The notes: generated by a model not told the origin, from the sequence alone. Counted from the stretch's first letter, positions 1-16,313 are shown. The stretch is DNA of 64,000 bases from Escherichia coli (GCF_003334815.1 NZ_QOWO01000016.1); one strand, 5' to 3'. Numbers and translations are program-made.

Positions 1-329
1 ATGAGCGCGGTCAGTTTGCCTCGTATGATGTGGTGGACGATGTCCGGCAGATGCTCTTTAAGGCCCTGCTGGGCTGGAACCCGGAAGCGTGCGGTAACCC
101 GATTACCTATGACGGCGGCACGCTGCTGGATCTGAATCGTCATGAGCTGATTTATCAGTTCGATTTTTCGGTCATCAGCGAGCTGACCGAAGATGATACC
201 CGCCAGCAGGATGATCTGAACAGTCTGGATGAACTGCAAACGCTGGCGATTGATGTTGATTATCTCGAGCCCGGTAACGGGCCTGACGGCGATATCGAAC
301 ATCACACCGAAATAACCCTTCCTTCCTGA
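1..329 (+). CDS. phage virion morphogenesis protein, C-terminal fragment (ORF is open to the window start; Mu gp37-like position upstream of sheath)
   Basis: Frame open from position 3 to stop at 327-329; lies directly upstream of the sheath gene; identity inferred from synteny only. Confidence 0.35.
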   Translation, partial: ERGQFASYDVVDDVRQMLFKALLGWNPEACGNPITYDGGTLLDLNRHELIYQFDFSVISELTEDDTRQQDDLNSLDELQTLAIDVDYLEPGNGPDGDIEHHTEITLPS

Positions 330-337
330 GGATCCTC

Positions 338-508
338 ATGTTTGTCAAACCTGTTAAAGGGCGGTCAGTGCCTGACCCTGCCCGCGGCGACCTTTTGCCC
401 GCCGAAGGGCGAAATGTTGACGAGAACAACTACTGGCTGCGCCGTGAAGCAGCGGGTGATATCCGGCGCGTGAATAAAAAGGTGAACACCGATGACGATA
501 AGCTTTAA
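338..508 (+). CDS. small phage protein (~56 aa) between virion gene and sheath (Mu gp38-like position)
   Basis: ATG at 338, stop 506-508, overlaps sheath start; below ORF-track size cutoff; synteny with Mu-like tail modules. Confidence 0.3.
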   Translation: MFVKPVKGRSVPDPARGDLLPAEGRNVDENNYWLRREAAGDIRRVNKKVNTDDDKL

Positions 509-1988
509 CTCCATTCCGTCGAATACGCTGGTTCCGCTGTTTTATGCGGAAATGGATAACCAGGCGGCGAATACTGCACAGGACAGCGGAGCATCGCTGC
601 TGATTGGTCATGCCAGTAACGGTGCAGAGATTGTTGCCAACAGTCTGGTACTGATGCCGTCGGCAGACTATGCACGCCAGATTTGTGGTGCGGGAAGTCA
701 GCTGGCGCGTATGGTCGAGGCTTATCGCCAGACTGACCCGTTTGGCGAGCTGTATGTGATTGCCGTTCCTGAATCCACGGGCGCGGCGGCAACGGTTACG
801 CTGACGGTGACCGGGGCGGCAACCGAAACCGGCACGGTGAATGTGTATGTGGGACGTACCCGCGTGCAGGCACCGGTGACTAACGGCGATAACGTCACGA
901 TGATTGCCAGCAGTATCCAGGATGCCATCAATGCCGTTCCGACCCTGCCGTTTACGGCTTCATCTTCGGCAGGCGTGGTCACACTGACCGCGCGTCATAA
1001 GGGGCTTTGCGGGAATGAAATTCCTGTCAGCCTCAATTACTACGGCTTTGGTGGGGGCGAAGTGCTGCCAGCGGGCGTACAGATTGCCGTGGCGACGGGT
1101 ACCGCCGGAACGGGTGCTCCGGTTCTCACCGGCGCGGTGGCTGCAATGGCGGATGAGCCGTTTGATTATATCGGCCTGCCGTTCAACGACACGGCCTCCG
1201 TTAACACGCTGGTGACCGAGATGAACGATACCAGCGGTCGCTGGAGCTATGCGCGTCAGCTGTATGGTCATGTGTATACGGCAAAGATCGGCACGCTGTC
1301 AGAACTGGTGACCGCAGGTGACCAGTTTAACCAGCAGCACATTACCCTGGCGGGATACGAAAAAGAGACCCAGACGCCTGCCGACGAGCTGGTGGCAAGC
1401 CGTACCGCCCGCGCAGCGGTGTTTATTCGCAACGATCCGGCACGTCCCACGCAGACCGGTGAGCTGGTGGGTATGCTGCCTGCGCCGAAGGGGAAACGGT
1501 TCACGATGACCGAGCAGCAGACCCTGCTGTCTCATGGCGTGGCAACGGCGTATGTCGAAAGCGGGGTGCTGCGCATTCAGCGTGATGTCACCACGTACAG
1601 GAAAAACGCTTACGGTGTTGCGGATAACAGCTACCTCGACAGCGAGACGCTGCATACCAGCGCGTATGTGCTGCGCAAACTGAAATCCGTCATTACCAGT
1701 AAGTACGGGCGTCACAAGCTTGCCAGCGACGGTACCCGCTTTGGCCCCGGTCAGGCGATTGTCACACCGGCGGTGATCAAAGGGGAACTGCTGGCAACCT
1801 ACCGTCAGCTTGAGCGTGCGGGGATCGTGGAAAACTACGAACTGTTTAAGCAGTACCTGGTTGTGGAGCGTGATGCCAGCGATCCGAACCGCCTGAACAC
1901 GCTGTTCCCGCCTGACTATGTTAACCAGTTGCGTGTCTTTGCCGTGGTTAACCAGTTCCGTCTTCAGTATTCAGAGGAGTCTGCATAA
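492..1988 (+). CDS. contractile tail sheath protein (Mu gpL-like)
   Basis: 498-aa ORF, first of a sheath-tube-chaperone-tape measure series; N-terminus ...SIPSNTLVPLFYAEMDN... typical of Mu-type sheath proteins. Confidence 0.8.
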   Translation: MTISFNSIPSNTLVPLFYAEMDNQAANTAQDSGASLLIGHASNGAEIVANSLVLMPSADYARQICGAGSQLARMVEAYRQTDPFGELYVIAVPESTGAAATVTLTVTGAATETGTVNVYVGRTRVQAPVTNGDNVTMIASSIQDAINAVPTLPFTASSSAGVVTLTARHKGLCGNEIPVSLNYYGFGGGEVLPAGVQIAVATGTAGTGAPVLTGAVAAMADEPFDYIGLPFNDTASVNTLVTEMNDTSGRWSYARQLYGHVYTAKIGTLSELVTAGDQFNQQHITLAGYEKETQTPADELVASRTARAAVFIRNDPARPTQTGELVGMLPAPKGKRFTMTEQQTLLSHGVATAYVESGVLRIQRDVTTYRKNAYGVADNSYLDSETLHTSAYVLRKLKSVITSKYGRHKLASDGTRFGPGQAIVTPAVIKGELLATYRQLERAGIVENYELFKQYLVVERDASDPNRLNTLFPPDYVNQLRVFAVVNQFRLQYSEESA

Positions 1989-2344
1989 TGGCCCGTATCG
2001 GGGGAACCTGTTATTTCAAAATTGACGGTCAGCAGCTATCGCTGACCGGCGGCATTGAGGTGCCCATGAACAGGACGGTCAATGATGACATCATCGGCCT
2101 GGACGGTTCAGTGGACCGCAAGGAAACTCACCGTGCGCCTTATGTCAAAGGGACCTTCAAGGTGCCGAAGAATTTTCCGGTGAGCAAAATCACCTCGTCT
2201 GATGAGATGACCATCACTGCCGAGCTGGCGAACGGTCAGGTCTATGTACTGTCGTCCGCCTGGCTGCACGGCGAAGCGAACCATAATGCCGAAGAAGGTA
2301 CGGTTGATCTTGAGTTCCACGGTGAAGAAGGGGATTACCAGTAA
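1988..2344 (+). CDS. tail tube protein (Mu gpM-like)
   Basis: 118-aa ORF, start overlaps sheath stop (TAATG), position after sheath. Confidence 0.7.
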   Translation: MARIGGTCYFKIDGQQLSLTGGIEVPMNRTVNDDIIGLDGSVDRKETHRAPYVKGTFKVPKNFPVSKITSSDEMTITAELANGQVYVLSSAWLHGEANHNAEEGTVDLEFHGEEGDYQ

Positions 2345-2613
2345 TGAAAGAGCTTGAGTTAAAGAAACCGATTACTGCTCATGGCGAGACACTCTCCGTA
2401 CTGGAGTTTGATGAACCCACCGGGAAGGACGTCCGCGAGCTGGGGTATCCCTACCAGATGAATCAGGATGAGTCAGTCAGACTTCTGGCGCATGTGGTGT
2501 CGAAATACATTGTGCGGCTGGCGAAAGTGCCGCAAAGCTCTGTCGACCAGATGTCTCCGGCAGACCTGAATGCAGCGGCGTGGCTTGTGGCCGGTTTTTT
2601 CCTCCAGGCCTGA
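2344..2613 (+). CDS. tail assembly chaperone, with probable -1 frameshift extension to 2762
   Basis: 89-aa ORF between tube and tape measure; U UUU UUC slippery run at 2595-2601; -1 frame ORF 2580..2762 overlaps. Confidence 0.6.
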   Translation: MKELELKKPITAHGETLSVLEFDEPTGKDVRELGYPYQMNQDESVRLLAHVVSKYIVRLAKVPQSSVDQMSPADLNAAAWLVAGFFLQA

Positions 2614-2754
2614 CGGCTGAATACCTCACTGATCGCTTCTTTGACTGCGCCAGCTACTGGCGCATTAATCCTTTCGAATTGCTGAATATGCCGATCAGTG
2701 AAATTCCCTTGCTGGTCAGTCAGGCAAACAGGATAGAGCAGGAGAAACGCACAC

Positions 2755-15840: not shown

Positions 15841-15845
15841 GCTAA

Positions 15846-16094
15846 TTAGTGAACAAACCACTCGTCAGCAGACTCCCAGGTATCTTTCAGAGTTTCCTGA
15901 ACAAAAGTTTTAGCTGAATCTTTATCGGCGGTGCGCGTAACAGAAAGGCCATCGTTGCTGGTGGCTTTTACGATCACCTCTACATCGTCATAACGCTTAC
16001 TGATGCGTCGAGTTAATTCTTCCTTTAACGCATCCACAGCACCGTTTGGCATTTTAGTCATTTTCTCTTTAGCTATGCAGATCTCAATACGCAT
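15846..16094 (-). CDS. DinI-family SOS-inducible protein (prophage-borne)
   Basis: 82-aa [13 protein letters not shown]...[11 protein letters not shown], DinI-like; two LexA boxes in its upstream region. Confidence 0.85.
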
Positions 16095-16109
16095 AAAAAT
16101 CCCTCTACA

Positions 16110-16125
16110 CTGTGTTTGTATACAG
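16110..16125. promoter_or_regulatory. LexA (SOS) box 1 upstream of dinI-like gene
   Basis: CTGTgtttgtatACAG, fits CTGT-N8-ACAG. Confidence 0.7.
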
Positions 16126-16137
16126 TGTTATTTTTAA

Positions 16138-16153
16138 CTGTATAAATAAACAG
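16138..16153. promoter_or_regulatory. LexA (SOS) box 2 upstream of dinI-like gene
   Basis: CTGTataaataaACAG, fits CTGT-N8-ACAG. Confidence 0.7.
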
Positions 16154-16313
16154 TGTCAATGGAACAAAGATTGCTGCATGTACAAATGTTCTTTGGCTAC
16201 AAATACACCTACTGATCATGTTCTGCTATGCTCTGATACCTCCAAAATGTACAATCAGCGGCATGAATTTTTCTTTGTACATATGATTGTACATAATTAA
16301 AGAGACAACAATT

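Follow-up and report, generated by a model that had tools for sequence, protein, structure and literature searches.

The right arm of a probable SfV-type prophage at prfC in Escherichia coli, with its boundary inside the gene

In Escherichia coli K-12 the gene yjjG is situated 90 bp upstream of prfC, the gene for RF3. In the E. coli chromosome analysed here, of which a stretch of 64,000 nt was examined (the window), prfC is preceded by phage genes. The locus raises the questions of what type of phage this is, how it is integrated and where its DNA ends. The first-pass annotation had rightly named yjjG as the upstream gene in K-12 and an insertion at this point, where a prophage arm is now found. 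It described a Mu-like prophage with no identifiable end and placed the start of the chromosomal gene series at prfC, i.e., a boundary at 16313. The reading reached here, to which a probability of about 93% is given, is that positions 1–16375 are a prophage right arm, from late tail genes through attR, of a temperate SfI/SfII/SfV-type myovirus that integrates site-specifically with a cdtI/2H10-type module whose core is in prfC. The left two-thirds (int, xis, attL and head genes) is beyond the window, so prophage completeness and the integrase are deduced from relatives; the left arm in this strain would carry the integrase.

Positions 1–16375 are phage DNA with genes for a contractile tail and baseplate, an invertible tail-fibre segment, the Pin invertase, cargo and dinI (Table 1), much as the first-pass annotation had it for the first ~16 kb. 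A PHROGs search assigns a family to every structural gene of the window, and the corresponding genes of a 98%-identical relative, E. coli GPEC620-622, carry PGAP annotation. All tail and baseplate genes are on the + strand up to the tail fibre and its assembly protein; the alternative fibre set on the - strand and then Pin complete the module (1–12456). The layout of the tail assembly chaperone suggests an extension by frameshift into the overlapping downstream ORF. The inverted-repeat arms of the fibre segment are 20 nt, 95% complementary, and align to Mu gixL/gixR about a AAACCTnGGTTT centre. The invertase adjoins this segment with its inverted gix-like sites, and there are two opposed sets of fibre C-terminus and tfa, as in the Gin/Pin/Cin switches. 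An Rfam scan gives just one match, IS009 within a tfa gene, which at 48 bits versus 117 is below threshold; it was rejected as an RNA gene on that score and is read as homology to e14-type tfa DNA.

Table 1. Coordinates of features in the prophage arm and reconstituted prfC
Feature	Position	Strand	Basis or remark
Tail-terminator gene, 3' part	1–329	+	Cut by window edge; ORF 30–329; phrog_5122
DUF2635 protein, Mu gp38-like	338–508	+	phrog_208; Mup38, 42% aa identity
Tail sheath, Mu L-like	492–1988	+	phrog_165, E=1e-230; Mup39, 36% identity over 500 aa
Tail tube	1988–2344	+	phrog_185
Tail assembly chaperone (2344–2613) and overlapping downstream ORF (2580–2762)	2344–2762	+	phrog_166; second ORF phrog_32181
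Tape measure protein	2755–4590	+	phrog_28 and phrog_17727
Mu gp43 (N)-like 'DNA circularization'/baseplate hub protein	4651–5979	+	phrog_184; Mup43 match; start adopted from PGAP annotation of relatives
Baseplate genes, whole block	5976–9648	+	PHROGs; collinear Mup44–Mup48 matches, 29–40%
gp44/P-like baseplate gene	5976–7055	+	
gp45/V-like baseplate gene	7055–7603	+	
gp46-like baseplate gene	7600–8028	+	
gp47/J-like baseplate gene	8015–9073	+	
gp48/YmfQ-like baseplate gene	9064–9648	+	
Tail fibre, current orientation	9652–10332	+	Constant N-terminal part to ~9936, then variable C-terminal part; phrog_1396 and other fibre families
Invertible fibre segment	9936–11840	.	Bordered by gix/pix-like inverted repeats 9936–9955 and 11821–11840
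Tail fibre assembly protein, active orientation	10337–10780	+	phrog_188; Mu U, 43% identity
Alternative tail fibre assembly protein	10752–11354	-	phrog_105, E=9e-96
Alternative tail-fibre C-terminal segment	11354–11840	-	phrog_523 tail collar fibre
Pin-type serine DNA invertase	11902–12456	+	phrog_125, E=4e-97; Mu Gin, 78% aa identity; pinE in GPEC620-622
102-nt direct repeat, copy a	12454–12555	+	Cargo-flanking; 93% identical to copy b
Cargo cassette 1	12815–14007	+	84-aa ORF 12815–13069, apparently hydrophobic by eye; 313-aa LPO_1073/Vpar_1526-family protein 13066–14007
dinI 3'-end remnant (recombination scar)	14076–14183	-	87% identical to 15847–15954; partial DinI pseudogene in strain 510016 annotation
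Cargo cassette 2	14411–15300	+	XRE-type HTH protein 14411–14770; ImmA/IrrE-type metallopeptidase, HELGH motif, 14779–15300
49-aa basic ORF, then terminator-like hairpin (15620–15639)	15458–15639	+	phrog_33859
102-nt direct repeat, copy b	15739–15840	+	
Phage dinI-like gene, 82 aa	15846–16094	-	phrog_189, E=4e-31; NF007893, 72.5 bits
Two LexA (SOS) boxes	16108–16127 and 16136–16155	.	Overlap dinI promoter-like site
attR P arm	16179–16295	+	Four TGTACA(A/T)(A/T) motifs: 16179, 16248, 16276, 16288
Surrogate prfC 5' end, phage-supplied, codons 1–16	16314–16361	+	48 nt identical to 2H10 attP, including A at 16361; differs from K-12
att core, candidate crossover region	16362–16375	+	14 bp; prfC codons 17–21; prophage right end
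Reconstituted prfC (RF3, 528 aa)	16314–17900	+	Hybrid of phage 5' end and chromosomal body; TIGR00503, 1089.7 bits

Positions 1–9956 have 97.7–97.9% nt identity to SfI/SfII/SfV, which covers 61% of the 16.3-kb query. At the protein level, counterparts in phage Mu are present in the same order (gp38, L, N, P, gp45–48, U and Gin), with blastp matches collinear with Mup38, 39, 43–48, 50 and 53, but the identities are only 29–43%, with 78% for Pin/Gin. The Mu-like label thus holds for the order of the tail genes and not for the whole phage, which has Sf-type DNA and whose full-length relative is lambdoid in its early region.

The right end of the prophage can be placed. A 14-bp core, ATTATTTCTCACCC, is common to the window attR, 2H10 attP, K-12 attB and GPEC620-622 attL, and is unique in the window. 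A four-way alignment shows P + core + B' in the window, P + core + P' in 2H10, B + core + B' in K-12, and B + core + P' in the GPEC620-622 attL. The A at 16361 is phage-specific, so the crossover is placed within 16362–16375, and the role of the core as crossover site is a reading of this alignment. Records of Stx phages annotate exactly this stretch as a 14-bp 'duplication due to insertion'. The core of SXT, according to what Hochhut and Waldor reportedly described in 1999, is the same stretch of prfC. The boundary at 16375 is 62 bp past 16313 and inside prfC. To the left of the core, prfC codons 1–16 and 219 bp upstream match the attP of phages 2H10 and cdtI, with 98.9% identity between 16095–16375 and 2H10 attP. 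The chromosomal series consequently does not begin with the first base of prfC, as had been supposed, and the 5' end of the gene is not K-12-like. Homology to K-12 begins only at 16334, and from there to 64000 the chromosome is collinear with K-12, prfC to dnaJ; the region up to dinI is not core genome. Four of the eight TGTACA(A/T)(A/T) sites in the window are packed into the 117 bp of the P arm. The motif is also clustered beside int in the attL of E. coli, Vibrio and Xenorhabdus elements, and the repeats are candidate arm-type integrase sites.

The reading frame of prfC is intact at attR. From residue 8 onward 520 of 521 residues of RF3 are identical to K-12, and the changes are confined to the first seven residues, at positions 3–7. 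In the probable mechanism, the far end of the prophage, beyond the window, encodes a tyrosine integrase of the DUF4102 type (IntSXT subgroup) that recombines attP with the core sequence in codons 17–21, where the P-loop motif of the RF3 GTPase starts. The attP bears an in-frame mimic of prfC codons 1–16 with 219 bp of upstream DNA. Because the start of prfC is mimicked in this way, integration would leave the native promoter and the first 62 nt of prfC stranded at attL, and at attR the phage copy is fused to the prfC body and keeps RF3 intact. The prfC promoter is presumably supplied by phage DNA. A simple sigma-70 consensus scan of the 219-bp phage leader finds no convincing + strand prfC promoter. 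As the leader includes the candidate arm-type sites for Int and borders on a pair of LexA boxes, there is a weaker possibility that it alters RF3 expression in lysogens.

The type of integrase is indicated by relatives. In the closest, E. coli GPEC620-622, a prophage of ~40.8 kb separates yjjG from prfC; its early region is lambdoid, its terminase belongs to the P27 family, its head is of the HK97 type, and a stub of the native prfC is left stranded at attL. Its DUF4102-type tyrosine integrase (412 aa; PF13356, PF22022 and PF00589) adjoins this 5' stub; transposase and MuA/MuB are absent. Integrases 51–63% identical are found in Vibrio diabolicus and Xenorhabdus innexi after holD-rimI and beside a prfC stub; these stubs have the same core at the end and the same TGTACA repeats. 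Cluster look-ups for integrases of ~50% identity name only Pantoea, Shewanella and Pseudomonas proteins. The prfC junction is present in 684 of 5,426 complete E. coli genomes when coverage of ≥80% is required, and in phages cdtI, 2H10, Ayreon, PhiR63_1 and the CC119 Stx1a/Stx2c phages; the attP-int segments of 2H10 and cdtI are 96% identical. The prfC locus is a hotspot of prophage insertion and is used by Stx phages (PMC3603311, PMC10132054, PMC8065619), and the integrases of the cdtI phage and SXT form one prfC-targeting cluster (PMC8138268). Two database matches were set aside. A match in SC480 that begins at the core, considered as a different element, is the empty native site. Phage SKA5 was rejected as an attP source, as its homology ends at 16162, directly where the gene of a different integrase stops, with a dusA-like fragment nearby; window position 16162 is a module boundary, not an att site.

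An alternative is that the window holds a defective remnant or a domesticated tailocin-like cluster, i.e., a tail arm left alone after deletion of the head, early genes or integrase. The window has tail and cargo genes only, with the left side out of view; prophage decay is common, and related prfC-site prophages show local decay (a truncated pin in F200, IS1 in the cargo of 510016). Against this, the structural ORFs of the window are all equal in length to those of annotated relatives, and the tail-terminator gene at the window edge continues leftwards, with a homologue in GPEC620-622 annotated as 'phage tail terminator protein' that has the equivalent end base. The nearest relatives have complete, full-length prophages and attR is intact, and a remnant is improbable. 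Integration linked to a tRNA gene is rejected, as ARAGORN finds no tRNA across the whole 64-kb window. The window also has no tyrosine integrase, its sole recombinase being the serine invertase Pin; both absences agree with the first-pass annotation, as does that of Mu-type ends. Transposition of a Mu-like prophage to a position just upstream of prfC, for which the homologous tail, baseplate, fibre and invertase genes in Mu order and an arm ending in a Gin-like invertase would speak, has next to no probability, since MuA/MuB are missing from the window (tblastn with Mu A and B) and from the full-length relative, where the early genes are lambdoid and the integrase is a tyrosine recombinase, the DNA identity is to SfI/SfII/SfV and not to Mu, the junction has POB' structure, with a core common to attP and attB, in place of the Mu end and 5-bp duplicated target that transposition would give, and the same junction in 684 genomes is incompatible with near-random insertion. 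The phage of the window is not transposable; it is a temperate myovirus of the SfI/SfII/SfV type.

Between Pin and the att region, 12457–16094 contains cargo of low GC (31–35% near 12.5–14 kb) together with the dinI-like gene. The Pin-to-dinI interval is a variable cargo slot, occupied here by two cassettes that are linked by scars of homologous recombination. In phage SKA5 one copy of the 102-nt repeat joins the invertase straight to dinI. In other strains the interval contains an 870-aa AAA ATPase, a reverse transcriptase and SLATT pair, or an HTH/ImmA pair. The 313-aa protein of cassette 1 matches NF045477 at 85.9 bits versus a cut-off of 45, and PF28206 is found in its homologues; the cassette has no match in the Pfam-A copy used, in PADLOC, or in a fold search of PDB. 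The pair is absent from the phage collection. The pairing of a Vpar_1526-family gene with an 84-aa ORF persists in distant contexts, including a P4-like satellite of Atlantibacter. Cassette 2 matches capH (3.6e-10) and capP (4.9e-11) in PADLOC, and its names also follow PGAP in relatives. A tentative and rather unlikely reading is that the interval is a cargo hotspot of prfC prophages and that the pair in cassette 1 is an uncharacterised two-gene anti-phage system. The dinI-like gene is so termed because its NF007893 score is under the equivalog cut-off. Its promoter-like site on the - strand is TTGACA-18-AAAAAT (16159–16130), and the two LexA boxes are the only TACTGT-N8-ACAGT matches (≤1 mismatch) in 64 kb, where 0.5 is expected. 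The exact cargo combination is in no complete E. coli genome of the collection, so the prophage of this strain could also differ on the left.

The locus combines features of several known systems. The tail, baseplate and fibre-base module is that of SfI, SfII, SfIV, SfV and E. coli phage SKA5, with 97–98% DNA identity over 1–9956. The Sf phages have contractile tails, integrate at the thrW tRNA gene and carry gtr O-antigen genes beside attP; SfIV has no DNA similarity to Mu (PMC3851460). The cargo adjoins the int-attP region in the Sf phages as in the window, but the site in the window is prfC and not thrW, and the window phage carries, in place of gtr, the Vpar_1526 and HTH/ImmA cassettes with dinI. 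SKA5 has dinI and the SOS boxes in common with the window, and from 16162 it has another integrase with the dusA-like fragment beside it. The invertase-[cargo]-dinI-attP-int module is that of cdtI (NC_009514), 2H10, Ayreon, PhiR63_1 and the Stx1a/Stx2c phages of STEC CC119. Between these lambdoid phages and the window, identity is 96–99% across the P arm, the surrogate 5' end of prfC and the 14-bp core. The CC119 Stx phages also integrate at prfC and are long-tailed and lambda-like (PMC10132054), and 2H10 has lambda-type tail genes in contrast to the SfV/Mu-type contractile tail of the window. The combination of the prfC module with that tail is in no record of the phage collection; it is found in many E. 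coli chromosomes. As in the IntSXT subgroup (SXT/cdtI), insertion is in the 5' end of prfC at a shared short core, the replacement 5' end keeps the ORF, and the P arm is homologous to cdtI/2H10 attP. In phylogenies, the SXT/R391 ICE integrase clusters with that of the cdtI phage (PMC2791158, PMC5812530, PMC8138268); unlike the window phage, the SXT/R391 elements are conjugative, ~100 kb, and not phages, and their link to the window rests on PMC8138268. With Mu the window shares the order and homology of gp38–gp48 and U and a Gin/gix-type invertible fibre switch. It differs in having a tyrosine recombinase and a fixed site, with no transposase, Mu ends or random insertion; for the arm beyond the window the lack of MuA/MuB is read from relatives.

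Integration of lambda type and a tail of Mu type are thus found in one common temperate E. coli phage. The attachment site in prfC is well known and a prophage of this type is ordinary there, and none of the findings is new in kind; the sole mildly new item is the uncharacterised cassette of the 84-aa and Vpar_1526-family proteins. The main value is correct annotation, in that the prophage boundary is within prfC and not before it. At least one survey places prfC among the genes disrupted by prophage integration (PMC3603311); here it is not disrupted but rebuilt, the phage encoding its N-terminus and providing the DNA upstream. The locus is a clear example of module shuffling, with one dinI-attP-int module in lambda-like siphoviruses, Stx phages and SfV/Mu-tailed myoviruses, and an integrase cluster that extends to SXT-type ICEs. 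The hybrid prfC is present in about one-eighth of complete E. coli genomes. Anyone who compares RF3 between strains or measures its expression should accordingly treat the promoter and first residues in those genomes as prophage DNA.

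The right end of the prophage, which the first-pass annotation had judged not identifiable, was placed by aligning the window with the K-12 yjjG-prfC region and with both junctions of E. coli GPEC620-622, the closest strains with a full-length related prophage; attP of phage 2H10 was then added. The four sites display a classical att pattern (see table). The core common to all four is 14 bp, ATTATTTCTCACCC, and occurs only once in the window. The base directly left of it, at 16361, is A, the attP allele, where K-12 has C; the exchange therefore happened inside the 14-bp core. 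The identical 14 bp are labelled 'duplication due to insertion' in Stx2c and Stx1a phage records. The core represents codons 17–21 (I-I-S-H-P) of prfC, where the RF3 P-loop motif starts. The true boundary is inside the gene, 62 bp beyond 16313, the end coordinate given in the first-pass annotation. Codons 1–16 and 219 bp upstream are derived from the phage and are not K-12-like; from 16334 to 64000, the sequence runs collinear with the K-12 stretch prfC–dnaJ. As stated in the first-pass annotation, K-12 has yjjG upstream of prfC, at a distance of 90 bp. Downstream of dnaJ, the last 79 bp of the window are the left terminus of an IS186 element whose insertion point matches that of IS186A in K-12 MG1655; identity of the flanking chromosome to K-12 is only ~98.7%.

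Features of the prophage arm and its junction with the chromosome
Feature	Position	Strand	Content
Late right arm	1–12456		Cut tail-terminator gene, DUF2635 protein, sheath, tube, chaperone, tape measure, five baseplate proteins, tail fibre, fibre assembly protein; then opposite-strand alternative fibre end and assembly protein, Pin-type serine invertase
Inverted repeats	9936–9955, 11821–11840		20 nt, 95% complementary
Direct repeats	12454–12555, 15739–15840		102 nt, 93% identical
Cassette 1	12815–14007		84-aa ORF; 313-aa LPO_1073/Vpar_1526-family protein (PF28206); low GC
dinI 3' remnant	14076–14183		108 nt, 87% identical to intact gene (15847–15954)
Cassette 2	14411–15300		XRE HTH protein; ImmA/IrrE metallopeptidase (HELGH motif); weak CapH/CapP-type matches
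dinI	15846–16094	-	
Two LexA boxes	16108–16155		
Four TGTACA(A/T)(A/T) motifs	16179–16295		
prfC start	16314		
attR, window	16362–16375 (core)		P, core, B'
attP, phage 2H10			P, core, P'
attB, K-12			B, core, B'
attL, GPEC620			B, core, P'
IS186 left end	63922–64000		

The hybrid prfC encodes an intact 528-aa RF3 (TIGR00503 score of 1089.7 bits). It is identical to K-12 at 520 of 521 residues from residue 8, and the N-terminus is MTSLLAAEV versus MTLSPYLQEV in K-12. In GPEC620-622, the displaced native promoter and the first 62 nt of prfC persist as a stub beside the integrase. Because dinI, upstream, points in the opposite direction, the phage would have to supply the prfC transcription signals; a simple consensus scan of the + strand gave no convincing promoter for prfC.

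The GPEC620-622 integrase is 412 aa, shares 96% identity with a cluster of 2,139 sequences, and has an arm-binding domain (PF13356), PF22022 and a catalytic domain (PF00589). Integrases of the cdtI phage and the SXT ICE form one cluster in the DUF4102-bearing IntSXT subgroup, and all members of this cluster insert at prfC (Smyshlyaev et al., PMC8138268). The attP-int segment of 2H10 is 96% identical to cdtI. Related integrases from Vibrio diabolicus (51% identical) and Xenorhabdus innexi (63%) are found after holD-rimI, beside a prfC stub that ends in ATTATTTCTCACCC and ATAATTTCCCACCC, respectively. Clusters of the TGTACA motif follow both stubs directly before int (L009, V. diabolicus, 3570–4010; L012, X. 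innexi, 3460–4010). The same core and repeats at these elements imply that core and arm motif are conserved across the integrase family. The four motifs of the window make up half of the eight such TGTACA sites in 64 kb. Since sequence and position are kept across genera, they are candidate arm-type sites, putatively for the integrase N-terminal domain. Of the two elements, one is an island that encodes a type I restriction subunit, and the second is prophage-like.

The block of dinI and the double LexA box (16095–16162) is a module boundary. The boxes lie ahead of dinI and overlap a strong promoter-like site. The same 65 bp adjoins a different tyrosine integrase in phage SKA5 and also on several chromosomes, among them those of O157. 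In SKA5 (L002 19357–19425), homology to the window ends directly at the stop codon of that integrase, next to which lies a dusA-like fragment.

In a megablast search of the phage collection, positions 1–9956 are 97.7–97.9% identical to SfI, SfII and SfV, and E. coli phage SKA5 gives 67% coverage. Sf phages are Myoviridae without DNA similarity to Mu, and their cargo adjoins int-attP (PMC3851460). At the protein level, direct comparison with Mu reveals collinear but distant homologues of gp38, L, N, P, gp45-48 and U (29–43%) and 78% between Gin and Pin, with no match to MuA or MuB in the window. The earlier term 'Mu-like' for the gene order is thus valid for the tail module alone. The closest chromosome, GPEC620-622, is 98.1% identical over 91% of positions 1–18500. 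Its prophage is complete, ~40.8 kb as computed from core coordinates, with a LexA-family repressor, replication gene, Q antiterminator, lysis cassette, HNH endonuclease, P27-family small terminase, portal, HK97 protease, capsid and the same tail arm. At its left end, beside the integrase (L004 10895–12490), is a gene annotated 'anti-phage dCTP deaminase', which implies accessory or defence cargo at both ends of this prophage type.

Gene content was concordant between the ORF listing, PHROG and NCBIfam scans and PGAP annotation of near-identical chromosomes. These bear out the tail, baseplate and fibre module with cargo reported for the first ~16 kb, the module being that of a contractile-tailed phage. 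ARAGORN likewise found no tRNA in the whole window. The inverted repeats can be aligned with Mu gix sites, and the ~1.9-kb host-range segment between them is invertible. A sub-threshold Rfam IS009 match inside the tail-fibre assembly gene (10542–10731; 48 bits versus a gathering score of 117) is most likely DNA homology to e14-type tfa sequence and not an RNA gene. GC content falls from ~58% in the tail genes to 31–35% in the cargo (~12.5–14 kb).

The pin-dinI interval is a mosaic. Both repeat pairs, the 102-nt direct repeats and the two dinI 3' copies, bracket the two cassettes and resemble scars left by homologous recombination between two phages or prophages with different pin-dinI cargo. 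The 84-aa ORF of cassette 1 appears hydrophobic by eye. The cassette 1 pair has no match in Pfam-A, PADLOC, the phage collection or by fold. The pairing is kept in the two other contexts examined, and is also present in a P4-like satellite of Atlantibacter hermannii; it is a candidate for uncharacterised defence or exclusion cargo. Downstream of cassette 2 lie a basic ORF of 49 aa (phrog_33859) and a terminator; no CBASS or other effector is near the cassette. At least nine prfC prophages of E. coli carry this block (14411–15607). Each cassette is found singly in other prfC prophages, and both together in none of the 5,426 complete E. coli genomes. Other strains carry in this slot an 870-aa AAA ATPase, or a reverse transcriptase and SLATT pair.

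The 306-bp junction (16095–16400) is present in 684 of the 5,426 genomes at ≥80% coverage, in phages cdtI, 2H10, Ayreon and PhiR63_1, and in 27 Stx1a/Stx2c phages of STEC CC119. prfC ranks among the hotspots of prophage integration (PMC3603311) and also serves as a site for Stx phages (PMC8065619, PMC10132054), and its 5' end is also used by SXT/R391 ICEs (PMC2791158, PMC5812530). The observation in the first-pass annotation is confirmed and its interpretation was right in part. Integration site, mechanism and phage type are all already established, and the question of boundary and mechanism is answered by ordinary, published biology.
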